From Frankiaceae bacterium (lineage in GTDB: Bacteria > Actinomycetota > Actinomycetes > BP-191), in contig DATMES010000022.1 in the NCBI GenBank assembly GCA_035556555.1, positions 7,577 through 71,576 on the forward strand: DNA of 64,000 nucleotides. The letters run 5' to 3'. Every line of letters begins with the position of its first letter. The first letter of the stretch is position 1. Shown in pieces: positions 32,427-59,426 of this stretch. Under the pieces are notes generated by a model. The model saw only the letters and a program-made list of their open reading frames with translations. It was not told the origin of the DNA and ran no database searches. The translations under genes were made by a program, and so were the position numbers.

Positions 32427-32810
32427 TCAGACGGTCAGGCCGAGCATCTCCCGTACGACGGGGAGCAGCTGGGCGAGGTCGTGCTTGCGCAGGTACCGGT
32501 CGATCGCGGGCTCGCGCGACACCTCGACCGCGAGATCGTGCGTCGTGAACAGCAGGATCCGCGACGTCGGCGCCACCCGCTTGATCATCGGCGCGAGGTC
32601 GACACCCATGATCGTGCCCTCGATGAAGTGGTCGAGGATGACGAGGTCGGGCGCCATGGCCTCGGCGAGCGGCAGGGCCTCCTCCGCGCTGGCGGCCTCG
32701 CCGTCGACCTCGATCCCCGGCTCGCCCATGAGCGTGAGCCGGATGAGTCGCCGGAAGTCGGCGTCGTCCTCGATGACGACCAGCACCTTCAGCAACGGCG
32801 CGTCCGTCAC
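32427..32810 (-). CDS. Single-domain response regulator (receiver only, CheY-like)
   Basis: LVVIEDD...DLVILD; GTGA overlap with the kinase stop. Confidence 0.8.
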   Translation of the reverse strand: MTDAPLLKVLVVIEDDADFRRLIRLTLMGEPGIEVDGEAASAEEALPLAEAMAPDLVILDHFIEGTIMGVDLAPMIKRVAPTSRILLFTTHDLAVEVSREPAIDRYLRKHDLAQLLPVVREMLGLTV

Positions 32811-34939
32811 GTCACGCTCCTCGCCCGCGGCACCGTGTAGCGCAGCGTCGTACCCGTACCGACGTGGCTCTCCACGCCGATCTCGCCACCCTGTGCCTCG
32901 ACAAGGGCACGGCAGATGTACAGGCCCAGACCGGTGCCTTTCTCTCCCCCGGACGGCGTAGCGAGGCGGGAGAACTTTCCGAACAGCCGCGGCAGGTCCT
33001 CCGGCGGGATTCCCGGACCGCGGTCGCACACGCGCACCTCGAGAAAGTCCCCCACGACGCCCACAGAGACCCGGATCGGGTACTCCGGCGGGGAGAACTT
33101 CTGCGCGTTCGAGATGAGGTTGGTCAGCACCCGCCACTGGCGGTCCTCGTCGCCGAGCGCCGTGGGGAGGTCCTCCGGTACGTCGGCGACGACGTTGCGG
33201 TCGTCGCGCGCGGCGTTCATCTCGTCCACGGTGCGGGTGACGAGCGCGCCGAGGTCGAACGGCGCGATGTCGTACGGGAAGTCGCCCGACTCGATCCGCG
33301 CGACCTGCAGCACGTCCTCGACGAGGACCGACAACCGCTTGGTGTTCTTGCTCGCGACGCCGAGGAGCTCCCGCTTCATCTCGTCCGGCAGGTCGTCCCA
33401 GCGCTGGAGCACCGTGTCGACGTAGCCGGCGATGACGGTCATCGGGGAGCGCAGGTCGTGGGCGACGACGCCGACGAACTCGTTCTTCAACGCGTCCAGC
33501 TCGCGCAGCCGCGCCGTCGTCTCGCGCTCGTACTCGAGCCGCGCCAGCGTGTAGAGCGCGCCGCCGACGACGTTGACCAGCTCGCCGACGATGACGAGGT
33601 CCTCCGGCGAGAACGTGTCCGGCTCGGTCGCCGCGAAGCTCAGCAGCGCGCGCGGCTGACCCGTGACGACGACGGGCGCCGCGACGCAGGACCGGACGCC
33701 GAGCCGGACGGCGTGCTCGCCGAACGCCGCCGCGATGTCGTTCTGCAGGAACGGCCCCCGCGCCTCGAGGATCGCGTGGAGCAAAGGGTCGTCGAGGGAG
33801 ACCTCGCTGCCGATCGGCAGGGCGGTCATGTCCTTGCCGCAGACCGCGACGACGGTCGTCACCTCGCCGTCGACGATCGACAGCGTCGCCCGGTCGAACC
33901 GCAGCACGCTCGACACCGCGCCGGAGAACGCGTCGAACCCCTCACCGAGGCTCGTCGCCGTCGCGACGGCGAGGTACGCCGCGCGCAGCACCGCGTCGCG
34001 CCCAGTGCGCCGTACGAGCACGTCCTGGAACGCCAGCCGCCGCGCCGCCTCCTCCTCCAGCTTGGCGGCGAGCCCCTCGGCGACGAGCCTGCGGCGGCGC
34101 GCGTGCTGGCCGAGCGACGTCGCGACCGCGAGCAGCGCCGAGAAGACGAGGCCGATGACGAGTACGCCGCCGGCCGCCCGGTCGAGCGAGATGGTGCGCG
34201 TGGCGTCGGTGCCGAGGTTGGTCAGCGCCTGCCAGAGCACGAGCGTCGCCGCGAGCGCGCCCACCGCCACGGGGATGGGCAGCCAGCGCGGCAGACCGTC
34301 GGTGTTGGCGAGGTTCCACGCGGTCCCGAGGTAGCCCATGGAGAGCAGCAGCAGGAGGAACGCCGTCAACGGCGCCATCGCGGTGCTGGAGCGCCACGTG
34401 TAGGCGGTCGTGACGTCGGCGGCGTACCCGAACAGCGCGACCAGCGCGAGGCCGGCCACGAGCGAGGCGGCCACGCCGACCGCGAGCGCGGCGCGGCGGG
34501 ACCGTTCGGATCGCGCGAACCAGAACGCGCTCGCGCCGAGCAGGGCGAAGCAGGCGGCGGAGTTGCCCGGCATCCGGCCCGGCGACTCGCCGGTCTTCAG
34601 CCACGGGTCGAACAGCAGCCGGTCGATGCCGAGGTCGACGCCGGCGACGTACTCCACGACGGTCGCGGCACCGGCGAACGTCACCAGCGCGATCGGCACG
34701 GTCGCGAAGCGGACCCAGCGGGACAGCGTGAGAAGCAGGCCGACGCCGAGCAGCCCGAGGCAGAGCGCGGTGTTGAACTGCATCGGCACCTGGTCGGCGC
34801 GCAGCCGCACCAGCTCGACGCGGTGCGTCAGCCAGCCGGCGAGCACCACCGCGCCGCCCAGCACCGCGACGACGGCGGCGGCCTCGGCGGGAAGGCGGGC
34901 GCTACGGGGCGGCAGCGGTGCCGACGCGACCGACGCCAC
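32807..34939 (-). CDS. Sensor histidine kinase: polytopic membrane N-domain, GAF, HisKA, HATPase_c
   Basis: H-box EFVGVVAHDLRSP; N, G1 and G2 boxes; GGGAGG RBS before the GTG. Confidence 0.8.
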   Translation of the reverse strand: MASVASAPLPPRSARLPAEAAAVVAVLGGAVVLAGWLTHRVELVRLRADQVPMQFNTALCLGLLGVGLLLTLSRWVRFATVPIALVTFAGAATVVEYVAGVDLGIDRLLFDPWLKTGESPGRMPGNSAACFALLGASAFWFARSERSRRAALAVGVAASLVAGLALVALFGYAADVTTAYTWRSSTAMAPLTAFLLLLLSMGYLGTAWNLANTDGLPRWLPIPVAVGALAATLVLWQALTNLGTDATRTISLDRAAGGVLVIGLVFSALLAVATSLGQHARRRRLVAEGLAAKLEEEAARRLAFQDVLVRRTGRDAVLRAAYLAVATATSLGEGFDAFSGAVSSVLRFDRATLSIVDGEVTTVVAVCGKDMTALPIGSEVSLDDPLLHAILEARGPFLQNDIAAAFGEHAVRLGVRSCVAAPVVVTGQPRALLSFAATEPDTFSPEDLVIVGELVNVVGGALYTLARLEYERETTARLRELDALKNEFVGVVAHDLRSPMTVIAGYVDTVLQRWDDLPDEMKRELLGVASKNTKRLSVLVEDVLQVARIESGDFPYDIAPFDLGALVTRTVDEMNAARDDRNVVADVPEDLPTALGDEDRQWRVLTNLISNAQKFSPPEYPIRVSVGVVGDFLEVRVCDRGPGIPPEDLPRLFGKFSRLATPSGGEKGTGLGLYICRALVEAQGGEIGVESHVGTGTTLRYTVPRARSVT

Positions 34940-35134
34940 AGCCACCTCCCTGGGACCCCTGGAGCCGTTGCGTGGATCTTGCCCCCCTTTGGTCTCCCGA
35001 TGCGACAGGTTGGCCGAACGTTCGCGGCGGCGCCGCGCGGCATGCGAGACTCGGCGACCACGAGCAGCAACGGCGCTGCGACCCGTCCGGCCCGCTTCCT
35101 TCCCCAGGCTGCGTACCGCATTGGAGCCCGTTGC

Positions 35135-38100
35135 ATGACCCGCACCCCGTACCACCTCGACCCCGAACGCGACGCCTGCGGCATCGGGTTCGTCGCCGAC
35201 GTGCGCGGGCGGCGTACGCACGAGCCCGTCGCCGAGGCGCTGAACGCCCTCGGCAGGGTCGAGCACAGGGGCGCGATCGCCGACGACCCGCAGGCCGGCG
35301 ATGGCGCGGGCCTGCTCGTGCCGATCGACGCGGCGTTCTACGCGGCCCGGCTGCCTGGCCTCCAGCCCGACGACGTGGAGCTGCTGGGCATCGCGATGGC
35401 GTTCCTGCCTGCCGACGTCGAGGGCGGGGAGCCGATCCAGGCCGCCGCGCGGCGCGCCTTGGAGGACGCCTGCCTGCACGAGGGCATCGGCGTCTCCGGC
35501 TGGCGGGTCGTGCCCGTCGATCCCGAGGCGCTCGGCGAGCACGCGCGCAGGCACGCGCCGCGCATCGAGCAGGCGGTCCTGCTGCGCTCGACGTCGGTGC
35601 CCGTCGACGAGGCCGAGCGGCGCGCGTTCCGCGCCCGCAAGCGCTTCGCGCGGACGGTGGCGGCGCGCGGCATCCCCGCGTACCTCGCGTCGATCTCGTT
35701 CCGCACGGTGACGTACAAGGCGCTCTGCGCGGCGGAGCAGCTCGGCGCGTTCTACGCCGACCTGACGGATCCGGAGCTGACGGGGTCGTTCGCGGTGTTC
35801 CACCAGCGGTACTCGACCAACACGACGCCGACGTGGACCCGCGCGCAGCCGTTCCGCTTCCTCTGCCACAACGGCGAGATCAACACCATCCAGGGCAACG
35901 TCAACTGGATGAGCGCCCGCGAGGGGTCGCTCGGCACCGGCGACCTCATCGAGGAGGAGCTGGTCCGCCCGGTCATCGAGCCCGACGGCTCCGACTCGGC
36001 GATGCTCGACAACGCCGTCGAGCTGCTCGTGCGCGCGGGCCGCGACATCCGGCACGTCATGGCGATGCTGGTGCCCGAGGCGTGGGAGGACGCGGGCCAC
36101 CTGCCCGCCGACGTGCGCGACTTCTACGAGTACCACGCGGGCCTGACCGAGCCGTGGGACGGCCCCGCGGGGCTGGTCTTCACCGACGGCGAGCGGGTCG
36201 GCGCCTGCCTGGACCGCAACGGCCTCCGCCCGCTCCGGTGGGCGGCGTCACAGGACGGCCTCGTCGTCTGCTCGTCCGAGGCCGGCGTCGTCAACCTCTC
36301 GGGCCGCGGCACCGTCACGCGAGGCCGCCTCGGGCCGGGCCAGATGATCTGCGTGGACCCGCGGTACGGCCTGCAGACCGACGCCGACATCAAGGGCTGG
36401 CTCGCGCGGCGGCGCCCGTACGGCGAGTGGCTGCGCAACGGCCTGCGCCGCGTCTCCGCCGGCGCGCCCGTGCGTGAAGCCGGACCGGCGCTGGCGCTGC
36501 GGCAGGTGGCGTACGGCTACACCCGCGAGGAGCTCACGACCGTCCTGCGCTCGATGGGCACGACCGGCAAGGAGCCGGTCTCGTCCATGGGCGACGACAC
36601 CGCGCTGTCGCTGCTGTCGGGGACGCGGCGGTCCGTCGCGTCGTACCTGAAGCAGCGGTTCGCGCAGGTCACGAACCCCGCGCTCGACCACCTGCGCGAG
36701 CGCACCGTCATGTCACTGCGTACGCGCCTCGGCATGCTGGAGCCGCTGCTCACCGAGCGGCCCGAGGCGGCGCGCGGCGTGGAGCTGGCGACGTTCCTGC
36801 TGACGCCGGCGGGGCTCGACGAGCTGGTCGGCGCGTCCGAGGTGCTCGGGCGCTACACGCGCCTCGACGCGACGTTCCCCGTGGCCGACGGCCCGGCGGG
36901 ACTGGAGAGCGCGCTCATCAAGCTGTCGTACGCCGCCGAGTCGGCGATCCTCGCCGGCTCGGAGCTCGTCGTGCTGGACGACTCGGCCGTCTCACCCGAC
37001 CGCGCGCCGGTGCCGATGCTGCTCGCCGTCGGCGCCGTGCACCAGCACCTCATCGACGGGCAGCTGCGCTCGCTCGCGTCGGTCGTCGTGGACTCCGGCG
37101 AGCCGCGCGAGGTGCACCACTTCGCGACGCTGCTCGGGTACGGCGCCGAGGCCGTCTGCCCGCGCCTCGCGCTGGAGACCGTGGCCGCGCTCGCCACCAA
37201 GACCGGCGGTCCCGAGGCGGCGGGGCCCGCGCAGGAGGCGTACCGGCACGCGGTCGAGGACGGCGTGCTCAAGGTGATGTCGAAGATGGGCATCTCGTGC
37301 CTCGACTCGTACCGCGGGGCGCAGATCTTCGACGCCGTGGGCCTGTCCGCGGCCGTCGTCGACCGCTGCTTCCGCGGCACGGTGTCGCCGATCGGCGGCG
37401 CGGGGTTCGCGGACCTCGCGGAGGACGTGCTGTACCGGCACCAGAAGGCGTACGACGCCAAGCCGGTCCTCGACAACCCCGGCTACGTGAAGTGGCGGCG
37501 CGGCGGCGAGTACCACCACAACAACCCCGACGTCATCCAGGCGCTCCAGTCGCTGACGGTCCCGGATGCGCCACCGGTGCCGGGCGCCGACAAGGAGCTG
37601 GCCGCGGCCCACTCGCTGCGGACGGCCGTGCAGAAGGGCGAGCGGGCGGCGTACGACCGGTTCGCCGCGCTCGTCGACGACCGGCCGCCCACCAACCCGC
37701 GCGACCTGCTGGAGGTCATCCCCGCGGCGACCCCGGTGCCGCTGGACGAGGTCGAGCCGGTGGCGTCGATCGTGAAGCGGTTCTCGACCGGCGCGATGTC
37801 GCACGGGTCCATCGGCGCGGAGGCGCACGAGACGCTGGCGCGGGCCATGAACATGCTCGGCGCCAAGAGCAACTGCGGCGAGGGCGGCGAGGACCCGGCG
37901 CGGTTCCGCAACGACCGCAACAGCAGGATCAAGCAGATCGCGTCGGGGCGGTTCGGGGTGACGCCGGAGTACGCGGCGTTCGCCGACGAATTGCAGATCA
38001 AGGTGTCGCAGGGCTCGAAGCCCGGCGAGGGCGGGCAGATCCCAGGCCACAAGGTGTCGGAGGAGATCGCGCGGCTGCGGCACACGACACCCGGCGTCGG

Positions 38101-39634
38101 TCTCATCTCCCCGCCGCCGCACCACGACATCTACTCGATCGAGGACCTCTCGCAGCTCATCTACGACCTCAAGCAGGTCAACCCGCGCGCGGACGTCTCG
38201 GTCAAGCTCGTCGCGTCGGCCGGCGTCGGGACGATCGCGGCCGGCGTGGCGAAGGCGTTCGCCGAGGTCGTGCACGTCTCGGGCACCGACGGCGGCACGG
38301 GCGCCTCCGCGCTGTCGTCCATCAAGAACGCCGGCCTCGACTGGGAGTTCGGGCTCGCGGAGGCGCAGCAGTCGCTCCTCGCCAACGGCCTCCGCTCCCG
38401 CGTGCGGCTGCGCGTCGACGGCGGCTTCAAGACGGGCCGCGACGTCATCATGGCCGCGCTGCTGGGGGCCGACGAGTACTCGTTCGGCACGGCCGCGCTG
38501 CTCGCCGAGGGCTGCATCATGGTCCGCGCCTGCCACCGCAACACCTGCCCCGTCGGCATCGCGACGCAGGACCCCGAGCTGCGGAAGAAGTTCACGGGCA
38601 CGGCCGAGCAGGTCGCCGACTACCTGCGCTTCGTGGCCGAGGAGGTGCGCGAGACGCTCGCGGTGCTGGGCTTCCGTTCGCTGGACGAGGCGATCGGGCG
38701 TACGGAGTCGCTGCGGCAGCGGCGTACCGACGACCCGCGCGCCGAGTCGCTCGACCTGCGCCCGCTGCTCGCGGTGCCCGCGGAAGGCCCTCGTCGGTTC
38801 GTGGCGCCGGTGTCGATCCAGCGCCAGCACGCGCCGCTGGGCGACCGGCTCTTCGACGTCGCGTGGCCGGTGGTCTCGACCGGCGGCACGCTCGAGGTCG
38901 ACTGGGACATCCGCAACGGCGACCGGTCGTTCGGGGCGCGGCTCGGCGGCGCGATCGGTCGCGCGTTCGGGGCGGCGGCGCCTCCCGGCGCGGTCACGGC
39001 ACGGCTGACCGGCGTAGCGGGGCAGAGCCTCGGGGCGTTCCTCACCGAGGGCATCCGCGTCGAGCTGACCGGCGAGGCCAACGACTACGTCGGCAAGTCC
39101 ATGGGCGGCGGCGTCGTCGCGATCACGCCGCCCGCCGACGACGCGGGCGACGCCGTGCTGGCCGGCAACACCGTGCTGTACGGCGCCACCGGCGGCCGCG
39201 TGTTCATCGGCGGGCGCGCCGGCGAGCGGTACGCCGTCCGCAACTCCGGCGCCGTCTCCGTCGTCGAGGGCGTGGGCGACCACCTGGCCGAGTACATGAC
39301 CGGCGGCACCGTCGTCGTCCTCGGCCCGACGGGCCGCAACGTCGGCGCGGGGATGAGCGGCGGGGAGGTCTTCGTCCACGACCTCGACCAGGCCCGCGTC
39401 AACCCCGCGATGGTGCGCGTGGACGCGCTCACCGCCGAGCAGGCGGGGCGCGTGAAGGCTCTGCTCGAGGAGCACCTCGCCGCGACCGGCTCGCGCCGCG
39501 CCGCCGCGCTGCTCGCCGACTGGGCGGTCGAGGCGGGCCGGTTCCTGCGCGTCGCGCCGACGCCGCCGGTCGTCGAGCTCGACGTCGAGGACGAGGAGAA
39601 GGTGGAGGCGTCGGCGACGGGTTCGACCGGATAA
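35135..39634 (+). CDS. gltB: Glutamate synthase large subunit
   Basis: 1499 aa; N-terminal CGIGFVA amidotransferase nucleophile; FMN, Fe-S and GXGXG domains. Confidence 0.95.
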   Translation: MTRTPYHLDPERDACGIGFVADVRGRRTHEPVAEALNALGRVEHRGAIADDPQAGDGAGLLVPIDAAFYAARLPGLQPDDVELLGIAMAFLPADVEGGEPIQAAARRALEDACLHEGIGVSGWRVVPVDPEALGEHARRHAPRIEQAVLLRSTSVPVDEAERRAFRARKRFARTVAARGIPAYLASISFRTVTYKALCAAEQLGAFYADLTDPELTGSFAVFHQRYSTNTTPTWTRAQPFRFLCHNGEINTIQGNVNWMSAREGSLGTGDLIEEELVRPVIEPDGSDSAMLDNAVELLVRAGRDIRHVMAMLVPEAWEDAGHLPADVRDFYEYHAGLTEPWDGPAGLVFTDGERVGACLDRNGLRPLRWAASQDGLVVCSSEAGVVNLSGRGTVTRGRLGPGQMICVDPRYGLQTDADIKGWLARRRPYGEWLRNGLRRVSAGAPVREAGPALALRQVAYGYTREELTTVLRSMGTTGKEPVSSMGDDTALSLLSGTRRSVASYLKQRFAQVTNPALDHLRERTVMSLRTRLGMLEPLLTERPEAARGVELATFLLTPAGLDELVGASEVLGRYTRLDATFPVADGPAGLESALIKLSYAAESAILAGSELVVLDDSAVSPDRAPVPMLLAVGAVHQHLIDGQLRSLASVVVDSGEPREVHHFATLLGYGAEAVCPRLALETVAALATKTGGPEAAGPAQEAYRHAVEDGVLKVMSKMGISCLDSYRGAQIFDAVGLSAAVVDRCFRGTVSPIGGAGFADLAEDVLYRHQKAYDAKPVLDNPGYVKWRRGGEYHHNNPDVIQALQSLTVPDAPPVPGADKELAAAHSLRTAVQKGERAAYDRFAALVDDRPPTNPRDLLEVIPAATPVPLDEVEPVASIVKRFSTGAMSHGSIGAEAHETLARAMNMLGAKSNCGEGGEDPARFRNDRNSRIKQIASGRFGVTPEYAAFADELQIKVSQGSKPGEGGQIPGHKVSEEIARLRHTTPGVGLISPPPHHDIYSIEDLSQLIYDLKQVNPRADVSVKLVASAGVGTIAAGVAKAFAEVVHVSGTDGGTGASALSSIKNAGLDWEFGLAEAQQSLLANGLRSRVRLRVDGGFKTGRDVIMAALLGADEYSFGTAALLAEGCIMVRACHRNTCPVGIATQDPELRKKFTGTAEQVADYLRFVAEEVRETLAVLGFRSLDEAIGRTESLRQRRTDDPRAESLDLRPLLAVPAEGPRRFVAPVSIQRQHAPLGDRLFDVAWPVVSTGGTLEVDWDIRNGDRSFGARLGGAIGRAFGAAAPPGAVTARLTGVAGQSLGAFLTEGIRVELTGEANDYVGKSMGGGVVAITPPADDAGDAVLAGNTVLYGATGGRVFIGGRAGERYAVRNSGAVSVVEGVGDHLAEYMTGGTVVVLGPTGRNVGAGMSGGEVFVHDLDQARVNPAMVRVDALTAEQAGRVKALLEEHLAATGSRRAAALLADWAVEAGRFLRVAPTPPVVELDVEDEEKVEASATGSTG

Positions 39635-48869: not shown

Positions 48870-49529
48870 TCAGAACAGCCGCAGGCCGCTCGGCTCGTAG
48901 CCGCGCAGCTCGTCGTAGTCCACCGTCACGCAGCTCAAGCCCCTGTCGGCCGCGAGCACCTTCGCTTGCGGCTTGATCTCCTGCGCCGCGAAGACGCCCC
49001 GCACCGGCGCGAGCAACGGGTCGCGGCCCAGCAGCTCGACGTAGCGCGTCAGCTGCTCCACCCCGTCGATCTCGCCGCGCCGCTTCACCTCGACCGCGAC
49101 GCAACCGCCCTCGGGGTCCCGGAACAGGATGTCGACGGGCCCGATCGCGGTCGGGTACTCGCGGCGTACGAGCGTCAGGCCCTCGCCGAAGCACTCCGGG
49201 TGGTCGGCCAGCAGCTCCTGCAGGTGCGCCTCGACGCCGTCCTTGACCAGCCCCGGGTCGAGCCCGAGCTCGTGGGTGAGGTCGTGCAGCACCTCCTCGA
49301 TGGAGATGACGAGCTGCTCGCCGGTCTTGTTGGTCACCCGCCAGACTCCGGGCGCCTCCTCGAGGAAGCACGGCGGGCTCATCCAGTTCAGCGGCTTGTA
49401 CGCCCTGTCGTCGGCGTGCACCGACACGCTGCCGTCGGCCTTGACCAGCAGCAGGCGGGTGGCCGTGGGCAGGTGCGCGGTCAGCCGGCCGACGTAGTCG
49501 ACCGAGCACTTCGCGATGACGAGCCGCAC
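48870..49529 (-). CDS. nucS: Endonuclease NucS (EndoMS mismatch-specific endonuclease)
   Basis: Colinear NucS, including the catalytic region DILFRD...VEVKRRGE. Confidence 0.9.
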
Positions 49530-49623
49530 GCCCGGACGATACTTCCCCCTTGCCGTCCGCGAGGCAGCGGGCCCTCGGCCGTTCCTCGATGTGTCAGGTC
49601 ACCCCTACGCCGAGGGGTCACTC

Positions 49624-49785
49624 ATGAGCAAGGTTCTCCTCGCTGGTGTCGTCGCCGCGCTGGCCCTCGTGCCGGCGTCCGCGCACGCCGACCCCCTCCC
49701 CGCCGCGTGCGTCGTCGTGACGCCGGCGCACGTCCAGGCCGGCTACGCGCCGAACGGGCCGAGCGACTGCGTCGTCCTGGCGTAG
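49624..49785 (+). CDS. Small secreted peptide (53 aa precursor; 31-aa mature peptide with 2 Cys)
   Basis: GAGGGG RBS; signal peptide MSKVLLAGVVAALALVPASAHA|DPLP; high GC3. Confidence 0.4.
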   Translation: MSKVLLAGVVAALALVPASAHADPLPAACVVVTPAHVQAGYAPNGPSDCVVLA

Positions 49786-49794
49786 CAGCGCGCC

Positions 49795-51783
49795 TTACGC
49801 CGCGAGCTGCGGCGGCAGCGGCTCGTCGTGGACCACCGTGAGAGACGTGACGGCGCGGGTGAGGACGACGTAGAGCCTTCTGAGCCCGCGCGGCTCGGCC
49901 GCGGCGATGGCGGCGGGCTCGACGACGACCACGTGGTCGTACTCCAGGCCCTTCGCCAGCGTCGCCGGCACCAGCTCGACGCGGACGTCGTGCGCCTCGG
50001 TGTCGGCGCCGAGCAGCCGCGCCTCGACCTGGGCAGCGGCCAGCGCGGCGTGGAGGGCAGGCGCGGCGGCGTCGGCGACGATGACGCCGACCGAGCCCTC
50101 CCGCTGGAGAGCCGCGGTCACGGCTGACACGGGGTCTCCGCTCGTGAGGGCGAGCGAGCCGGCGCCGCGGCGTACGGAGGTCGCGGGGTCCACCCCGGCC
50201 GCGATCGTCGGGAGCAGCCGGTTGGCGAAGTCGAGGACCTCCTGCGGTACGCGGTAGCCGCGGGTCAGCGCCTGCACGCGGCCGTCGGGCTTGCCGAGGT
50301 GGGCGAGCGTCGTATGCCAGTCCCCCGTCGCCCACGGCGTCGTGCCCTGGGCGACGTCGCCGAGCAGCGTCGCGGAGCCGGTCGAGCAGCGGCGGCCCAC
50401 CGCGCGGCACTGCATCGGGGAGAGGTCCTGCGCCTCGTCGAGGATGACGTGGCCGTAGCTGGGGGTGCGTTCCAGCAGGTCCGCGACCTCGTCGGCGAGG
50501 AACGCGTCCGCCCGCGTCCACGGCGCGCTCCTCGGGCTCCGGGGCGTCTCCCGCCAGAGCAGCGCGGCCTGCTCGTCGCCGGTGAGGACGCCGTCGGCGG
50601 CCTTGGCCAGGGTGGTCGCGTCGGTGAACAGCGCGTACAGCAGGCCCGCGGGGTCCGTCGCCGGCCAGTGCTCGTCGACGTACGCCCGCACGTCGGGGCT
50701 GCCCGCGATCCGCTGCACCGCGCCGTCCGTCGGCGTCGAGCCCTCCGCCTCGAGCTCGCGGCGGACGTGCTCGGCGACGTGGGTACGGAGGCGCTCGCGC
50801 GCGGTGGCGTACCGGACGTCGGCCTGGAGCAGGTCGCGCACCAGCCCGCGCAGTACCTCGGTGTCGAGGCGCCGTCTCCGGCCGCCGGCCTCCAGGACGA
50901 GAGGCGTGGCGGGGCGGCGGATGCGGGCGTACAGCGCCTTCTTCAGCACCGCCGCCATCCGCGCGTCGCCCTTCAGCGTCGCGACGTCCGGGGGCTCCGT
51001 GGCTTTGACCGGAACGGCGGTGGCGAGGTCGTCGACCGTCTGCTGCGTGACGTCGATCTCGCCGAGCGCGGGGAGGACGTCGCCGATGTAGGAGAGGAAC
51101 GCCTTGTTCGGGCCGAGGATGAGCACGCCGCCGCGGCGGAGGCGGTCGCGGTAGGTGTAGAGCAGGTACGCCGCGCGGTGCAGGCCCACCGCGGTCTTGC
51201 CGGTGCCGGGGGCACCCTGGACGCAGATCGTCTCGGCGAGGTCGGCGCGGACCAGCTCGTCCTGGTCGGGCTGGATCGTGGCGACGATGTCGCGCATCGG
51301 GCCGACGCGGGGACGTTCGATCTCCTCGGTGAGGATGCGGCTGGTGATGCCGAGCGCCTCGCCGCGGGTCAGCGCCTCGTCCTCGAAGGACGTCAGAACG
51401 CCGTGCGAGAAGCCGAAGCGGCGGCGGCGTTCGACGCCCATCGGCTCCAGCGCCGTAGCCCGGTAGAACGGCAGCGCGATCGGCGCGCGCCAGTCGACGA
51501 CCATCGGGTCGCCGCGGGTGTCGAGGATGTGCCGGCGGCCGATGTGGAACGTCTCGTCGGTATCCGCCTGGTCGACGCGGCCGAAGAACAGCGGCGTCGT
51601 ACCGTCGTCGACCAGGGCCTTGAGGCGCTGTGCGCGCGCCTTGCCGAGCGCCTCGGACGCCAGCGCGTCGACGGCGAAGTCGCCGATGGCCTCCGCGCGC
51701 TCGCGCATGTGCCGCAGGGCGGTACGGCTGGCGGCCATGTGCGCGCGCTCGGCGTCGAGCTCGGCGCGGACGTCCGTCGTCAT
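49795..51783 (-). CDS. helD: HelD-family (UvrD-like, RNA polymerase-associated) helicase
   Basis: Walker A GAPGTGKT; N-terminal HelD-specific domain; DEAQD motif. Confidence 0.85.
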   Translation of the reverse strand: MTTDVRAELDAERAHMAASRTALRHMRERAEAIGDFAVDALASEALGKARAQRLKALVDDGTTPLFFGRVDQADTDETFHIGRRHILDTRGDPMVVDWRAPIALPFYRATALEPMGVERRRRFGFSHGVLTSFEDEALTRGEALGITSRILTEEIERPRVGPMRDIVATIQPDQDELVRADLAETICVQGAPGTGKTAVGLHRAAYLLYTYRDRLRRGGVLILGPNKAFLSYIGDVLPALGEIDVTQQTVDDLATAVPVKATEPPDVATLKGDARMAAVLKKALYARIRRPATPLVLEAGGRRRRLDTEVLRGLVRDLLQADVRYATARERLRTHVAEHVRRELEAEGSTPTDGAVQRIAGSPDVRAYVDEHWPATDPAGLLYALFTDATTLAKAADGVLTGDEQAALLWRETPRSPRSAPWTRADAFLADEVADLLERTPSYGHVILDEAQDLSPMQCRAVGRRCSTGSATLLGDVAQGTTPWATGDWHTTLAHLGKPDGRVQALTRGYRVPQEVLDFANRLLPTIAAGVDPATSVRRGAGSLALTSGDPVSAVTAALQREGSVGVIVADAAAPALHAALAAAQVEARLLGADTEAHDVRVELVPATLAKGLEYDHVVVVEPAAIAAAEPRGLRRLYVVLTRAVTSLTVVHDEPLPPQLAA

Positions 51784-51903: not shown

Positions 51904-52203
51904 TCAGGCCCCGAGCATCCGCGCCTCGACGGCGAGGTACTCGGCGGCGGCGCGCTCGTACAGCGCCTCGAAGTCCGGTCCGAGCCGATGCGCGCGCCGC
52001 CCGAACCGCAGGCGTACGACGCTCCCGCAGAGCAGCCGCGCCAGCCGCCACGGCACGCCCGGGTCGAAGTGGTCGGCCTCGTCCACGAAGACCACGACCT
52101 CGGCGCCGCGCGGCACGTCCACCACCGCGAGGTCGACGTCCCACTCGGTCAGCAGCCCGTCGCCGCGTACCGGGTCGAGGCGGACCTCGTACTCGGCGCT
52201 CAC
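51904..52203 (-). CDS. Hypothetical protein (about 100 aa) located immediately downstream of dnaB
   Basis: GTGA overlap with the dnaB stop; high GC3. Confidence 0.45.
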   Translation of the reverse strand: MSAEYEVRLDPVRGDGLLTEWDVDLAVVDVPRGAEVVVFVDEADHFDPGVPWRLARLLCGSVVRLRFGRRAHRLGPDFEALYERAAAEYLAVEARMLGA

Positions 52204-54791
52204 CCTGCGGGAGTCATGTCGATGAAGCGGGAGTAGTGGCCCTGGAACGCCACCGTGATCGTGCCCGTGGGGCCGTTGCGGTGCTTGGCGACGATGAAGT
52301 CGGCCTCGCCGGCGCGGGGCGACTCCTTCTCGAACGCATCCTCGCGGTACAGCAGGATCACCATGTCGGCGTCCTGCTCCAGCGAGCCCGACTCGCGCAG
52401 GTCGGACAGCTGCGGCTTCTTGTCGGTGCGGGACTCGGGGCCGCGGTTCAGCTGGCTGATCGCGACGACGGGGACCTCGAGCTCCTTGGCCAGCAGCTTC
52501 ATGGACCGGGAGATCTCGGAGACCTCCTGCTGTCGGTTCTCGACCTTGCGCGGCGAGCTCATGAGCTGCATGTAGTCGACGACGATCAGCTCGAGGTTCT
52601 GCCGCTGCTTGAGCCGCCGCGCCTTGGCGCGGATCTCCATCATCGTGAGGTTGGGGCTGTCGTCGATGAACAGCGGCGCGTTGGCGACCTCGCCCATCCG
52701 GCGCGCCAGCCGCGACCAGTCGTCGTCGGTCATGCGGCCGGTGCGCATGTTCTGCAGCGAGACCCGCGCCTCGGCGGAGAGCAGGCGCATGGTGATCTCG
52801 TGCTTGCTCATTTCGAGCGAGAAGATCACTGAGGTCTTGCCTGCCTTGATCGACGCCGCGCGGGAGAAGTCGAGCCCCAGCGTGGAGTTGTGCGTCGGGA
52901 TCATCGAACGCGTCGCGAGGTAGAGGTGCTCGTCGTTGCCGACCTCGACGCAACGCACGGGAACGCTCGGGATCGGTCGCACCGCGACGATGAGCCGCGA
53001 CCGGTTGCGCGCGTCGCCCTTGGCGCCGCGCCGGTCCTTGTGCACGAGCCGCTTGCGCTCCAGGCGGAACACGTCGTCGGAGGTCGTGAAGTTGAGGATG
53101 TACGCGATCGACGACTCCGGCGTACGGCCCCGCACGGCCTTGGTACACACCGAGACGCGATAGCCGAGGCTGGTGACGAGCTCGCGGACGTCCTCGGCCA
53201 GCCGGCGCGACGTGACGCAGAACTGCAGCTGCCCCCTCGGCGTCACGGTGCCGTCAGTGTCCATGAGCCCGGCGAGCAGCGCGCGCCGCTGTGCCTCCGA
53301 CGCGCGGAGGTACGCGGCCGGGATGTGCTTGGCACCGAGGACGCCGAGCGTGCGCAGGATGCCCTGCACGGTGCCGTGCGCGTCGTGGCACTCCTGGCAG
53401 CGCAGCAGACCGGTGGACGGACGGCCGCAGTCGGGGCAGGTCGGCGCGGGGACGGGAGCGGACACGAAGCGGGCACGGCCGCCGCAGGACTGCCCGCAGG
53501 TGCGGACGTGGGCGAGCGGGTTGACGAACTCGGTGCCGCAGACGGCGCAGGCGCGCGGCGCGGGCGGCGGCGGCTCGGGGAGCCGGATCGTGAACGTCAG
53601 GCCGTTCGACGCGCTCGGAACGACGCGGTATCCCTCGTCCTCCAGGTACAGCACCATCTCCGGATCGGCCGTCGTGATGCGCGCGGCGGCGGAGTGGCCG
53701 TCGCCGAGCCAGGCACCGAGGACGTACGGCGACAGGGGCAGGACGGCGGCGGGCAGGTCGAGCGGGGCGGCGTTGGGGACGGAGTGGTTGAGGCGCCGGT
53801 CCGCCGTCTCGCAGCGCAGGGTCGCGGCGATCTCCGCCGTGGTCCTGACCGAAGCCACAGCACGGCCGCTCGACCGTCGTGACGCGCGGGTGTCGGTGAG
53901 CCACTGGTGCTCGGCGTCGGCGACGACGACGGTGCCGTCGGCGAACTCCACCTCGTAGCACGACCGATCGGTCATGACCTCGGTCGCCGCGACGACGGGC
54001 GTCGGACGGCCCGAACGGTCGAGCAGCAGGTCGCCGACCGCGACCTCGCCCATCGTCGTCCACCCCGTGGGCGTGGGCAGCGGGGTGTCGAGCGCCAGCG
54101 CCTTGCCGATGGCGGGACGCGCGGCGACGATGACGAGCTGGCCGGGGTGGAGGCCGTTGGTCAGGGCGTCGAGGTCCTTGAAGCCCGTGGGAACGCCGTG
54201 CAGGTCGCCGTCGCGGGAACCGATCGCCTCGATCTCGTCCAGCGTCGGCTGCAGCAGGTCCTCGAGGCGGATGTAGTCCTCGGACGTACGCCGCTCGGTG
54301 ACGTCGAAGATCGCCTGCTGCGCCCGGTCGACGATGTCGTCGACCTCGCCGCCGCGGCCGCCGTAGCCGAGCTGGACGATCCGGGTGCCGGCCTCGACGA
54401 GGCGGCGCAGGATCGCCTGCTCGGCGACGATCTTGGCGTAGTAGCCGGCGCTGGCGGCGGTGGGGACGGCGGACGCGAGGTCGATGAGGTACGTCGCCCC
54501 GCCGATCCGCCCGATCTCCCCCGTGCGGGTGAGCTCGGCGGCGACGGTGATCTGGTCGACGGGCTCGCCGCGGCCGTAGAGGTCGACGGCGGCCTCGTAG
54601 ATGACCTGGTGCGCGGGCCGGTAGAAGTCGCCGGGGCGGAGCACCTCGACGACGTCGGCGATGGCGTCCTTGGACAGCAGCATCCCGCCGAGCACGCTCT
54701 GCTCGGCCTCGATGTTCTGCGGCGGCGTGCGGTCGAACTCACGATGCTCGACGGGCGGCGCTGCGCGCTGCGGGAACTCGACTGCGGTCAC
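52200..54791 (-). CDS. dnaB: Replicative DNA helicase DnaB, interrupted by an intein in the Walker A motif
   Basis: N-terminus aligns with actinobacterial DnaB (QNIEAEQSVLGGMLLSKDAIADV); Walker A is split as AARPAIGK|[intein]|STLGLDF. Confidence 0.9.
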   Translation of the reverse strand: MTAVEFPQRAAPPVEHREFDRTPPQNIEAEQSVLGGMLLSKDAIADVVEVLRPGDFYRPAHQVIYEAAVDLYGRGEPVDQITVAAELTRTGEIGRIGGATYLIDLASAVPTAASAGYYAKIVAEQAILRRLVEAGTRIVQLGYGGRGGEVDDIVDRAQQAIFDVTERRTSEDYIRLEDLLQPTLDEIEAIGSRDGDLHGVPTGFKDLDALTNGLHPGQLVIVAARPAIGKALALDTPLPTPTGWTTMGEVAVGDLLLDRSGRPTPVVAATEVMTDRSCYEVEFADGTVVVADAEHQWLTDTRASRRSSGRAVASVRTTAEIAATLRCETADRRLNHSVPNAAPLDLPAAVLPLSPYVLGAWLGDGHSAAARITTADPEMVLYLEDEGYRVVPSASNGLTFTIRLPEPPPPAPRACAVCGTEFVNPLAHVRTCGQSCGGRARFVSAPVPAPTCPDCGRPSTGLLRCQECHDAHGTVQGILRTLGVLGAKHIPAAYLRASEAQRRALLAGLMDTDGTVTPRGQLQFCVTSRRLAEDVRELVTSLGYRVSVCTKAVRGRTPESSIAYILNFTTSDDVFRLERKRLVHKDRRGAKGDARNRSRLIVAVRPIPSVPVRCVEVGNDEHLYLATRSMIPTHNSTLGLDFSRAASIKAGKTSVIFSLEMSKHEITMRLLSAEARVSLQNMRTGRMTDDDWSRLARRMGEVANAPLFIDDSPNLTMMEIRAKARRLKQRQNLELIVVDYMQLMSSPRKVENRQQEVSEISRSMKLLAKELEVPVVAISQLNRGPESRTDKKPQLSDLRESGSLEQDADMVILLYREDAFEKESPRAGEADFIVAKHRNGPTGTITVAFQGHYSRFIDMTPAG
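52887..54101 (-). mobile_element. DnaB P-loop intein, class 3-like (N-terminal Ala, internal Trp and Cys, C-terminal THN) with a LAGLIDADG homing endonuclease domain and a Cys-rich insert
   Basis: Begins ALALDTP and ends SMIPTHN, followed by extein Ser; LGAWLGDGH and LLAGLMDTDG motifs; block F VRCVEV; boundaries are approximate. Confidence 0.8.
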
Positions 54792-56988: not shown

Positions 56989-57113
56989 AGCCGCGCGGCT
57001 AGTGGCGCTCCGGGCGGCGGTGGTCGTTCTGTGCAGCCGGTACGCCGGTCTCGAGCGTGTTGATCTTCACAGAACGGGCAGCGGGCGCGGCGGGGCAGGG
57101 ATGCACCCCGCGG

Positions 57114-57863
57114 CTACGGCGACGGCGGGGCGCTGGCGAGCAGCGCGCGCAGCTCGGCCGAGCCGACGCCGCCGATGAGCAGCAGCGCGAGCATGACCGG
57201 CAGGCCCTTCTCGCGGCCGGTGGCCGGCTGCGGCGTCAGCCCGCCCGCCCCGAGGAACGTCTCCTTCGGCGTCTCGGGGTCCGGCGCGACGCTGGGCAGC
57301 AGCGGCGTCGAGGTCGCCGACGGCGGCGCCACGGAGCCGCTGGGGATGGCCGGGGACGCGGTGCCCGAGGACGGGGTCGGCGACGGCGTCTCCGACACGG
57401 TCTCCGACGGGCGCGGCGAGGAGGTCGCGGTCCGCGTGGTCGTCGGGCGCGGCGACGACGTCCTGGTCTTCGTCGGCGACGGCTTGACCGTCCCCTCGAC
57501 GATGACGGTGCCCTTCATGCCGACGTCCTCGTGCGTGGTGCAGACGTAGCGGTACGTCCCCGCGCGCGAGAACGTCGCCTCCGTCGTGAAGTTCAGCAGC
57601 GCGGGCGGGCCGACGGGGTCGCTCTTGTCCCAGTTGGCGCTGGACGACGTGACGTTGTGACCCGAGCCACCGGCGTACTGCCACGTCACGGTGTCGCCGG
57701 GCTTGATGCGCACGGTCGCGGGGGTGAAGCGGTTCTCGTTGTTCTGGCCGACCGCGACCGTCTGGTCCTCCGCGGTGGCCGGCGTCATGAACGCGGGCAC
57801 GACGAGGAACGCCGACGCGCCGAGGGCGGCGACGGCGCGCAGGACGCGGAACGCGGGGCGCAC
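57114..57863 (-). CDS. Secreted/membrane-anchored cupredoxin (type-1 blue copper) protein with a PT-rich linker and C-terminal TM anchor
   Basis: Signal peptide; copper ligands GHNV...YVCTTHEDVGM (His, Cys, His, Met). Confidence 0.7.
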   Translation of the reverse strand: MRPAFRVLRAVAALGASAFLVVPAFMTPATAEDQTVAVGQNNENRFTPATVRIKPGDTVTWQYAGGSGHNVTSSSANWDKSDPVGPPALLNFTTEATFSRAGTYRYVCTTHEDVGMKGTVIVEGTVKPSPTKTRTSSPRPTTTRTATSSPRPSETVSETPSPTPSSGTASPAIPSGSVAPPSATSTPLLPSVAPDPETPKETFLGAGGLTPQPATGREKGLPVMLALLLIGGVGSAELRALLASAPPSP

Positions 57864-57919
57864 CGATCCAGTGTCGCACCCGGGCTGGCAGGGTGTCCGC
57901 CCAAGGCGTACAAACCTGG

Positions 57920-59426
57920 CATGGCCGAGAACGCGCGCGAGCTCCGCATGCTCATCGACGGCGAGCTGACCGGCGCCGCCGACGGGCGGACGTACGAGTC
58001 GATCAACCCGTCCACCGGCGAGGTCTCCTGCGTCGTCCCCGACGCGGGCACGGAGGACGTCGAGCGCGCGCTCGCGGCGGCGCGGAAGGCGTTCGACACG
58101 AGCGACTGGGCCACGCAGGGGCGGGAGAGCCGCGTCCGCACGGTGAAGGCGTTCGTCGAGGGGATCACCGCGCGGCTGCCGGAGTTCATCGAGTACGAGG
58201 TCGCCGACGCCGGCCACACGAGCCGCCTGGCCAACCTCTTCACGGTGCCGCTCGCGGTGGAGCACAGCAGGCAGGCGATAGAGCTGTACGAGCAGCGCCG
58301 CGACGTCGAGCCGCTGCCGCAGATCACGACGCCGGCGCTGTCGGCCAACTACGTCCGCCGCGAGCCGGTCGGCGTCTGCTCGCTCATCAGCCCGTTCAAC
58401 TTCCCGATCCTCATCGCGATGTGGAAGGTCGCGCCGGCGCTGGTCACCGGCTGCACGGCCGTGCTCAAGCCGAGCCCGCTGACGCCGGCGACGGCGCTGC
58501 TGCTCGGCGAGGTCGCGGCCGAGCTGCTGCCGCCCGGCGTCCTCAACGTCGTCACGCCGAGCGGCATCGGCCCCGCGGAGGTGCTGACGACGAGCCCGCT
58601 GCCGGACAAGGTGTCGTTCACCGGGTCGACCGACACAGGGCGAAGGATCATGCGCGGCGCGGCGGACACGTTGAAGGACCTGACGCTGGAGCTCGGCGGC
58701 AAGGGGCCGGCGATCTTCCTCGACGACGTGGACCTCGAGGCGGCGGTGCCGGGGGCGCTGTTCGGCTTCCTCATGCACCAGGGGCAGGCCTGCGAGTCCA
58801 CGACGCGGCTGCTCGTGCCGCGACGCCGGTACGACGAGACGCTCGAGGCGCTGAAGGCCGCGACGGAGGCGCTCGTGGTCGGGCCGGCCGACGACTTCGG
58901 GTCCGACCTCGGGCCGCTCATCTCCGCGGGCCAGCTCGACCGCGTGCAGCGGTACGTCAAGCTCGGCCTCGACCAGGGCGCGCGCCTGCTCACGGGCGGC
59001 GAGCCGATCGAGATCGGCGGCGGGTTCTTCCACCAGCCGACGATCTTCGCGGACGCCACCAACGACATGACGATCGCCCAGGAGGAGATCTTCGGGCCCG
59101 TGCTGACGGTGATCCCGTACGACACCGAGGGCGAGGCCGTCGCGATCGCCAACGACACCGTCTTCGGCCTGTCGGCGTCGGTCTGGTCGCGCGACGTGCC
59201 GCGCGCGGCGGGCGTCGCGCACCGCGTCCGCGCCGGCACCGTCTGGATCAACGACGTGCACCTGCTCAACGGGTACGCGCCGTTCGGCGGCTACAAGCAG
59301 TCCGGCGTCGGCCGCGAGCTCGGCCCGCAGGTGCTGGACGCGTACCTCGAGACGAAGCACGTGCACGTCGACCTGTCGCCGTCGCTGGCGCAGAAGTACT
59401 GGTACGGCACCATCGGGCTCGGCTAG
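57920..59426 (+). CDS. NAD(P)-dependent aldehyde dehydrogenase
   Basis: ALDH Glu and Cys active-site motifs: LELGGKGP and FLMHQGQACESTTR. Confidence 0.9.

Follow-up and report, generated by a model that had tools for sequence, protein, structure and literature searches.

The dnaB gene in this window (by which we mean the whole 64,000-nt stretch of DNA analysed) raises the question of what kind of element interrupts the P-loop of its helicase, whether the homing nuclease carried inside still works, and what two cysteine-rich fingers might add to that nuclease. We read the element as combining class 3 splicing, a homing nuclease and accessory DNA-binding fingers, and would put this reading, taken whole, at a probability of close to 0.9. 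The precursor gene (52200..54791, minus strand; 863 codons plus stop) lies in an operon ordered rpsF-ssb-rpsR-rplI-dnaB, and its product matches Pfam DnaB (E 7e-36) and DnaB_C (E 6e-99). Its minus-strand orientation, shared by every feature located below, is the sole item left out of an earlier sequence-only reading of this DNA. Rfam and tRNA scans of the 64,000-nt window returned no match. We infer a GTG start at 54791 because conservation with two relatives (L001 and L012) begins at the N terminus VTAVEFPQR. The N-extein (230 aa, 54102..54791) is 90–94% identical to the N-exteins of these two relatives and ends partway through the Walker A motif, in AARPAIGK; the C-extein (228 aa plus stop, 52200..52886) opens with STLGLDF. 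After splicing, the mature DnaB would be 458 aa long. Annotated correctly, this is a single dnaB of 863 codons from whose product a 405-aa intein is spliced out, and neither a fragmented nor a fused helicase.

The reverse strand of 52887–54101 is stop-free and encodes exactly 405 aa (Ala1–Asn405, ALALDTPL...SMIPTHN), bearing out the P-loop intein of about 405 residues proposed by the sequence-only reading. The flanks AARPAIGK and STLGLDF fix the junctions at AARPAIGK|ALALD...PTHN|STLGLDF, within the Walker A motif and between its Lys and its Ser, just where that reading had set them within GK(S/T). Splitting of this motif is the mark of DnaB insertion site b, as defined previously (PMC6195587), and the element (52887..54101), lodged in the chromosomal gene for the replicative helicase of a high-GC, Frankiaceae-like actinomycete, is, judged on its sequence features, a full-length intein of class 3 from the DnaB site-b lineage, a known kind whose family is large and in which it does not stand out. 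The second mycobacterial DnaB site had been said to be uninterrupted, and site a (RESG|SLEQ, motif H4, 52374..52397) is indeed empty, reading SDLRESG|SLEQDADMV here and, when occupied in the two-intein DnaB P0132, RESG|CLTAS...AVHN|SLEQDADMV.

Searches of PDB sequences with phmmer returned 6RIX (E 1.6e-38) and 6BS8 (E 6.9e-38), with both of which the two intein ends align ungapped, residue for residue; at E ≤ 1e-5 there are 3398 matching database proteins. Class 3 inteins carry a WCT triplet made up of a Trp (block B position 12), a Cys (block F position 4) and a Thr (block G position 5) (Tori et al. 2010; PMC2807308), and here alignment with 6BS8 pairs Trp67 with W67, Cys384 with C118 and Thr403 with T137. 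Block A (ALALDTPLPTPTG, 54063..54101) pairs 1:1 with residues 1–13 of 6BS8 and begins with Ala1, not a Cys, Ser or Thr, so it offers no N-terminal nucleophile. Block B (VVVADAEHQWLT, 53895..53930) contains Asp62-x-x-His65-x-Trp67, the last being the WCT Trp, with the same numbering as D62/H65/W67 of the M. smegmatis intein Msm DnaBi1 (PMC6195587). Block F (PVRCVEVGNDEHLYLA, 52914..52961) supplies the F:4 nucleophile Cys384 together with Val385 and Tyr394; the three correspond to C118/V119/Y128, the site of zinc inhibition in the Msm intein (PMC7360933). Block G (SMIPTHN, 52884..52907) supplies Thr403, His404 and Asn405, followed by Ser+1, which is the Walker A Ser. Ungapped alignment to 6BS8 also matches Cys48 (53958..53960) with Cys48 of Msm DnaBi1, which there pairs with the block F Cys in a disulfide (PMC6195587). 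The remaining class 3 positions are occupied as well, by His65 (B:10), the penultimate His404, the terminal Asn405 and Ser+1. Among the 106 non-redundant DnaB site-b inteins that form our set for conservation counts, A1, C48, D62, H65, W67, C384, T403, H404 and N405 are invariant (106/106), as is Ser+1. The sequence-only reading thus placed its hallmarks well: EHQW (His65, Trp67), VRCVEV (Cys384) and THN (403–405) all fall at these residues, the initial Ala holds in translation, 6BS8 alignment and all 106 relatives, alignment to 6BS8 and 6RIX upholds the insertion point, and the Trp-Cys-Thr pattern retains its block B Trp and block F Cys.

With GK|S of the Walker A loop divided by the intein, the 863-aa precursor should have no ATPase activity before splicing. 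By homology with MP-Be DnaB and Msm DnaBi1, whose class 3 mechanism has been described (PMC2807308, PMC6195587, PMC7360933), Cys384 would attack the Lys(-1)-Ala1 peptide bond, at a junction activated and packed by His65, Asp62 and Trp67, giving a thioester branch; the N-extein would then pass to Ser+1, Asn405 would cyclize with help from His404, and an O-to-N shift would finally restore GKST. Biochemically, the class is marked by a block F Cys that it cannot do without and by a thiol-labile branched intermediate at block F (PMC2807308). In the homologous M. smegmatis mini-intein, splicing is reversibly blocked by H2O2 and zinc (PMC6195587, PMC7360933), and since Cys48 and Cys384/Val385/Tyr394 match the M. 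smegmatis residues, redox or zinc control is plausible here by analogy.

An embedded homing endonuclease had been proposed from two LAGLIDADG-like blocks, LGAWLGDGH (residues 128–136) and LLAGLMDTDG (residues 275–284), and profile, model and fold comparison all agree. The domain spans about residues 111–367, zinc module included (53001..53771), with motif 1 (PYVLGAWLGDG, catalytic Asp134) at 53697..53729 and motif 2 (ALLAGLMDTDG, catalytic Asp283) at 53250..53282. It scores above curated Pfam thresholds for LAGLIDADG_3 (PF14528; 31 bits, cut-off 22.5) and Hom_end (PF05204; 23.5 bits, cut-off 21.1). An AF2 model of the whole intein (pLDDT 93.2, pTM 0.90) gives the nuclease two alpha-beta-beta-alpha-beta-beta-alpha halves, a pseudo-dimeric alpha-beta fold in which each of the two motif helices ends in an acidic residue and Gly. 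Foldseek against the PDB ranks PI-SceI first (E 1e-16, TM ~0.6), then 6BS8, with further fold matches of the nuclease to PI-PfuI and I-DmoI.

Conservation bears on whether this nuclease still functions. Of the 106 relatives, 85 keep Asp134 (49 of the 52 with the zinc module) and 86 keep Asp283; both persist in 49/52 finger-bearing and 28/29 finger-less full-length inteins, and both have been lost from the 11 shortened inteins (<310 aa) and the 8 mini-inteins. Against two Frankiaceae relatives, dN/dS is 0.15–0.29 in every intein segment, nuclease and fingers included, an estimate of purifying selection drawn from only two pairwise comparisons at dS 0.5–1.0. The nuclease is probably still active. 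It might instead be an inactive relic within a fixed, vertically inherited intein, retained with its fingers for the folding or splicing of an essential protein: decayed forms occur in many lineages, selection on folding could likewise hold dN/dS low, and the composition profile is free of GC or skew anomalies, the intein (GC 0.69–0.76) equalling its host gene and so giving no sign of recent arrival. However, the catalytic Asp residues play no part in splicing and are nevertheless kept in 77/81 full-length inteins (finger-bearing and finger-less together), their loss being confined to shortened forms; the intein is patchy among exteins more than 90% identical; and its dS (0.62–0.63) exceeds that of the exteins (0.28–0.47), a hint of exchange uncoupled from the host gene. 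We consider a relic unlikely, if still deserving of some weight.

The best intein matches in genome contigs come from two Frankiaceae MAGs (79–80% intein identity). The closest DnaB exteins (P0198–P0202, 91–94% identity) have no intein, an absence that is as would be expected for a mobile element. Intein-less L069 has the same gene order as here, and the empty alleles of L069 and L070 read IVAARPAIGKSTLGLDF at the insertion site; the reconstructed empty site for this dnaB is GCCGCGCGTCCCGCCATCGGCAAG|TCCACGCTGGGGCTCGACTTCTCC. When the empty-site DNA of close relatives is compared, the differences are all synonymous. An active nuclease would cut intein-less dnaB alleles at ...GCCATCGGCAAG|TCCACGCTGGGG..., letting repair copy the intein in. 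The plasmid collection yielded distant relatives only, and phage relatives of the intein reach at most 47% identity, with lengths of ~330–353 aa. InBase holds several actinobacterial DnaB site-b inteins of ~400 aa. The literature searched contained nothing relevant on DnaB inteins in Frankia.

Within the first nuclease half-domain, after its fourth strand, sits a double zinc-finger module (residues 183–243, 53373..53555), which the AF2 model places between strand 4 and helix 3. Finger 1 is C185-x2-C188-x13-C202-x3-C206 (CAVCGTEFVNPLAHVRTCGQSC, 53484..53549) and finger 2 is C222-x2-C225-x9-C235-x2-C238 (CPDCGRPSTGLLRCQEC, 53388..53438). A zinc-finger-like Cys module between the LAGLIDADG motifs had been noticed earlier; its four Cys pairs (185/188, 202/206, 222/225, 235/238) stand, but it is not peculiar to this intein, being the prevailing architecture in the family, where 52/106 site-b inteins carry both fingers. 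Each finger presents four ligands as two knuckles of conserved spacing, as in a zinc ribbon or treble clef, with zinc as the putative metal. It is barely credible that the stretch is a low-complexity or chance insertion, unfolded and metal-free: the eight Cys hold a fixed spacing and are each present in 51 or 52 of the 52 finger-bearing inteins, Gly, Phe and Arg are conserved around them in the same 52 sequences, the module is modelled at pLDDT 82–93 in the context of the whole intein, its dN/dS is 0.16–0.28, and the same module occurs in inteins of two unrelated ATPases. Conservation of the eight Cys in 52 inteins effectively refutes that account.

The module falls outside curated families. 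Pfam searches with the isolated module and with each finger gave only sub-threshold zinc-ribbon matches, the best being DZR_2 (16.8 bits; cut-off 27), and it could be assigned to none of DZR_2, DUF2116, the NinG N terminus or others. Finger 1 nonetheless aligns with all five tandem fingers of an HNH_3 protein (P0136; BLASTP 2e-7) that itself matches the Pfam 'probable treble clef' DUF2116, and with finger arrays of NinG-like phage proteins, three of our proteins (P0140, P0142 and P0145) matching NinG. As the query is below all those Pfam thresholds, the link between finger 1 and the DUF2116, NinG and HNH_3 fingers is transitive. The module is strongly basic, with a mean net charge of +5.25 and conserved Arg/Lys at 183, 200, 204, 209 and 211, and close relatives have lost it time and again while keeping the nuclease. 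The nuclease fold does not require it, because finger-less relatives retain both catalytic Asp.

Taken together, the fingers most probably serve as a dispensable DNA-binding accessory that would lengthen or strengthen contact with the target; this is the least certain step of our reading. The module might alternatively be a sensor, its eight thiolates beside the splicing domain tying helicase maturation to zinc supply or oxidants and so extending the Cys48-Cys118 redox switch and zinc inhibition of the M. smegmatis mini-intein. Such a role would draw on the reversible H2O2 and zinc block of that mini-intein (PMC6195587, PMC7360933), on conservation here of the residues behind it and on purifying selection on the module. 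DNA contact is the better fit because the module lies in the nuclease domain rather than the Hint domain, has been lost many times while splicing residues and nuclease Asp were retained, resembles through finger 1 the finger arrays on other nucleases, and is basic; we regard a sensor as distinctly improbable. Building on the DNA-binding reading, we offer, tentatively and with more doubt than confidence, a broader proposal: that the paired C4 fingers are an undescribed modular DNA-binding accessory of intein LAGLIDADG nucleases, ancestral to the actinobacterial DnaB site-b clade, cleanly shed many times and taken along by the intein into P-loops of further ATPases (a Prim-Pol helicase and one more), and that they extend target recognition past the nuclease saddle and perhaps make nuclease activity or helicase maturation zinc- and redox-dependent. 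In the literature searched, no LAGLIDADG or intein nuclease was described as bearing a zinc finger or zinc ribbon.

Current understanding is not overturned by this intein, whose only little-described feature is the conserved zinc-finger pair inside its homing nuclease. The locus and its relatives present a full-length DnaB site-b form under selection beside natural empty alleles more than 90% identical, a convenient system for asking whether class 3 inteins still home, what a zinc-finger add-on gives a LAGLIDADG nuclease (of some interest for nuclease engineering) and whether mycobacterial redox or zinc control of helicase maturation reaches other actinomycetes.

Msm DnaBi1 (6BS8; zinc-bound 6OWN) and the M. 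leprae DnaB intein occupy the same site b (GK|S) of the same host protein, and the present intein shares with Msm DnaBi1 the numbering of A1, C48, D62, H65 and W67, the block F Cys/Val/Tyr and THN|S. The likeness to the mycobacterial DnaB-i1 type drawn by the sequence-only reading holds for site and class 3 residues and fails for overall form: the studied mycobacterial DnaBi1 are endonuclease-less mini-inteins (PMC6195587, PMC5050341) of 139–145 aa with an unstructured linker in place of the nuclease (PMC6195587), whereas the 405-aa intein here has an apparently intact nuclease and two zinc fingers, making it a full-length form of the DnaBi1 lineage rather than an equivalent of those mini-inteins. 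MchDnaB-1 (6RIX, 6RIY), the best splicing-domain sequence match (E 1.6e-38) and also found by Foldseek, differs likewise as a 145-aa mini-intein without endonuclease. MP-Be DnaB of Mycobacteriophage Bethlehem, 341 aa in InBase, differs in having Pro1 and no zinc-finger module. As the biochemical prototype of class 3, with a length of 341 aa deduced from its Thr339 and an endonuclease whose expression is toxic in E. coli, it shares the missing N-terminal nucleophile, the WCT triplet, Ser/Thr at +1 and the embedded LAGLIDADG endonuclease (PMC2807308). PI-SceI (yeast VMA1 intein; 1EF0, 1LWT) shares the Hint domain with an inserted single-chain, two-motif LAGLIDADG nuclease, but is class 1 (Cys1) and only 15% identical in sequence. 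It gains its additional DNA contacts through a DNA-recognition region of its Hint domain rather than through zinc fingers. The CxxCGxxF...C(S/G)xxC fingers of phage nucleases (DUF2116, NinG N terminus, HNH_3 arrays) have the Cys spacing, Gly and Phe of finger 1; unlike them, finger 1 is internal to a LAGLIDADG domain and paired with a C-x2-C...C-x2-C finger 2.

The 405 codons at 52887–54101 (−) fall within a long minus-strand ORF and translate without stops on the reverse strand (ALALDTPL...SMIPTHN), flanked by ...VIVAARPAIGK upstream and STLGLDFSRAASIK... downstream. Pfam DnaB (N-terminal domain) and DnaB_C lie either side; the 405 aa between ...ARPAIGK and STLGLDF interrupt the DnaB_C match, leaving it in two parts, and bear out the sequence-only reading of an intein at the Lys/Ser junction of the DnaB P-loop (site b). 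The gene (52200–54791 (−); precursor 863 aa, spliced product 458 aa) is the chromosomal replicative helicase. Its likely start codon is the GTG at 54791, since VTAVEFPQR marks the onset of conservation with the two closest loci. It is last in a conserved rpsF–ssb–rpsR–rplI–dnaB cluster, followed immediately by a UvrD-like (HelD-type) helicase and mismatch endonuclease NucS (48870–51783 (−)), an order also present in an intein-less relative (L069). GC is 72% for the window, and the intein matches its host gene. No tRNA genes, and no Rfam families at gathering threshold, were found in the whole 64 kb (1–64000). Two other ORFs have long N-terminal extensions: in 32777–39634 (+) glutamate synthase domains begin at about residue 800 of 2285, and in 57003–59426 (+) an aldehyde dehydrogenase domain begins at residue 327 of 807. 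Both are probably over-extended, as is usual in high-GC DNA, the alternative being a fused N-terminal domain.

Searching all PDB sequences with phmmer matched the intein to MchDnaB-1 (6RIX, E 1.6e-38) and Mycobacterium smegmatis DnaBi1 (6BS8 and 6OWN, E 6.9e-38), in line with the suggested likeness to mycobacterial DnaB-i1. Residues 1–72 and 371–405 align gaplessly with both halves of these class 3 DnaB mini-inteins (139–145 aa), and the published M. smegmatis residues therefore map directly (PMC6195587): A1, C48, D62, H65, W67, C118, T137, H138 and N139 correspond to Ala1, Cys48, Asp62, His65, Trp67, Cys384, Thr403, His404 and Asn405, with Ser+1 following. The inhibitory zinc of 6OWN is held by C118, V119 and Y128 (PMC7360933), whose counterparts are Cys384, Val385 and Tyr394. 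We compared 106 non-redundant inteins from the same DnaB site, drawn from protein matches and genome loci; each of the mapped residues from Ala1 to Asn405 is present in 106/106, including the Ala start and Trp-Cys-Thr pattern (Ala1, Trp67, Cys384, Thr403) recognized earlier. All sequence-level features of class 3 (PMC2807308) are present, and by these the intein is assigned to that class. Cys48 (53958–53960) was termed non-conserved in the M. smegmatis paper, being outside the splicing blocks (PMC6195587); despite this label it is invariant among site-b DnaB inteins (106/106), suggesting that a Cys48/block F Cys pair may be general to the lineage.

Pfam LAGLIDADG_3 and Hom_end both exceed gathering scores, with motifs PYVLGAWLGDG (Asp134) and ALLAGLMDTDG (Asp283). 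An AlphaFold2 model built from a 59-sequence alignment (mean pLDDT 93.2, pTM 0.90) places the Hint domain at 1–110 and 368–405, with the insert forming two αββαββα halves. Foldseek against the PDB ranks PI-SceI top (E 1e-16, TM about 0.6), followed by the TliVMA and PhoVMA inteins, PI-PfuI and, for the Hint part, 6BS8/6RIX. Sequence and fold thus agree with the embedded endonuclease first proposed, and the zinc-finger-like module noticed between its LAGLIDADG blocks resolves into eight cysteines in two C4 units: C185-x2-C188-x13-C202-x3-C206 (finger 1) and C222-x2-C225-x9-C235-x2-C238 (finger 2). In the model (module pLDDT 82–93) it lies between strand 4 (169–173) and helix 3 (245–252) of the first nuclease half.

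The module is not peculiar to this genome. Nuclease and both fingers occur in 52/106 site-b inteins (398–419 aa, one 506), finger 2 alone with nuclease in 4 (375–384 aa), the finger 1 pattern alone with nuclease in 2 (327 and 476 aa) and a full nuclease without fingers in 29 (318–379 aa, one 472); the remainder are 11 shortened forms (261–302 aa) and 8 mini-inteins (138–146 aa). The catalytic Asp pair persists in 28/29 finger-less inteins and is lost only in shortened and mini forms; such stepwise decay is what the homing cycle predicts. Nearest neighbours of finger-less inteins are often finger-bearing, with identities outside the module of 91% (P0092, L003), 88% (P0104, P0017), 87% (P0103, P0016) and 84% (L030, L006). 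The module has therefore been cleanly lost, or gained, several times, and repeated loss would be the more parsimonious. Three inteins, L019 (506 aa), L021 (476 aa) and L033 (472 aa), exceed the 400–419 aa norm by 60–100 residues and so carry further insertions; the L033 contig is labelled a Bifidobacterium breve MAG, odd for an actinomycete-soil clade.

Each of the eight cysteines is retained in 51 or 52 of the 52 finger-bearing inteins, the surround of finger 1 is strongly conserved (R-x-C-V-V-C-G-x-x-F-x-P-x-T-S-Q-V-R-T-C-G-R-S-C-G-G-R-A-R), and the module's mean net charge is +5.25 across 63 residues. Against the closest loci, two Frankiaceae MAGs (L001 and L012; intein identity 79–81%), Nei–Gojobori dN/dS is 0.15–0.29 in every intein segment and 0.28 and 0.16 in the module. 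These low values argue for a functional module, though they come from two comparisons only (dS 0.5–1.0).

No Pfam family reached threshold with the module as query (best DZR_2 'double zinc ribbon', scoring 16.8 bits where the cut-off is 27), and phmmer with 75 aa (53352–53576) returned only 78 matches at E <= 1e-3 from 1.84 billion representatives. The strong matches are DnaB intein fragments, from which two proteins stand apart. P0144 (1204 aa; Prim-Pol plus AAA_25 helicase) carries the same class 3 intein, fingers included, within its P-loop (SPGAGK/ALKLD...VPTHN/SS), and P0182 (1104 aa; ATPase-like, with N-terminal hydrophobic segments) likewise has this intein with both fingers (KEAGK/ALALD...IPTHN/TV). 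The whole element, class 3 intein and fingers together, has therefore moved between P-loop hosts. Weaker, multi-stretch matches are proteins of tandem finger 1 motifs: P0136, an HNH_3 endonuclease matching Pfam DUF2116 ('probable treble clef'), has five such fingers, each aligning to the query (BLASTP 2e-7), P0140, P0142 and P0145 match the NinG family, and PHROGs gives a weak match of the module to phrog_1333. These CxxCGxxF...C(S/G)xxC arrays (matching 53484–53549) run from 3–5 copies up to ~20 (1662-aa P0140), one fused to the HNH_3 nuclease and others matching NinG. They appear to represent a modular, seemingly little-described array of fingers belonging to mobile nucleases. Accessory DNA binding is our best reading of the module, at about even odds (roughly 0.5), because this basic finger type is arrayed on other mobile nucleases, the module sits at the edge of a DNA-binding half-domain and it is dispensable for the fold; alternatively, it could be a sensor placing splicing under zinc or redox control.

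The intein family (3398 matches at E <= 1e-5) is Actinomycetota-wide in one-genome-per-species contigs, including Pseudonocardia, Nocardiopsis, Nonomuraea, Microbacterium, Gordonia, Mycobacterium and Frankiales, with more distant relatives in other phyla. Phage relatives, in terminase, RecB-like exonuclease and DnaB-like genes (<=47% identity, about 330–353 aa), are too short for fingers and fit the published idea of phage–host intein exchange (PMC5050341). With the spliced 458-aa DnaB as query, the five closest exteins (P0198–P0202; 91–94% identity, 454–459 aa) are intein-less, one of them encoded at L069, a locus whose genes are arranged as in the window. Extein identity to intein-bearing L012 is 94–97% and to L001 90–91%; presence and absence are therefore interleaved among near relatives. 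Empty alleles encode an identical IVAARPAIGK/STLGLDF, their DNA differing from the window at synonymous positions only. Intein dS (0.62–0.63) exceeds flanking extein dS (0.28–0.47) in both comparisons (52200–54791 against L001 and L012), possibly through exchange of the intein independently of its host gene, possibly through stronger constraint on helicase codon usage.

We could not find the double zinc-finger module, alone among the elements of this intein, described within a nuclease in the searchable literature, whose coverage stops short of subscription journals and InBase records. In all else the intein is an ordinary object, joining the known DnaB site-b class 3 inteins. These are well characterized in structure and biochemistry as mycobacterial mini-inteins (PMC6195587, PMC7360933, PMC5050341), which lack a nuclease, whereas the window intein has a LAGLIDADG nuclease; this combination with class 3 splicing is already known from the mycobacteriophage Bethlehem intein, MP-Be DnaB (PMC2807308).
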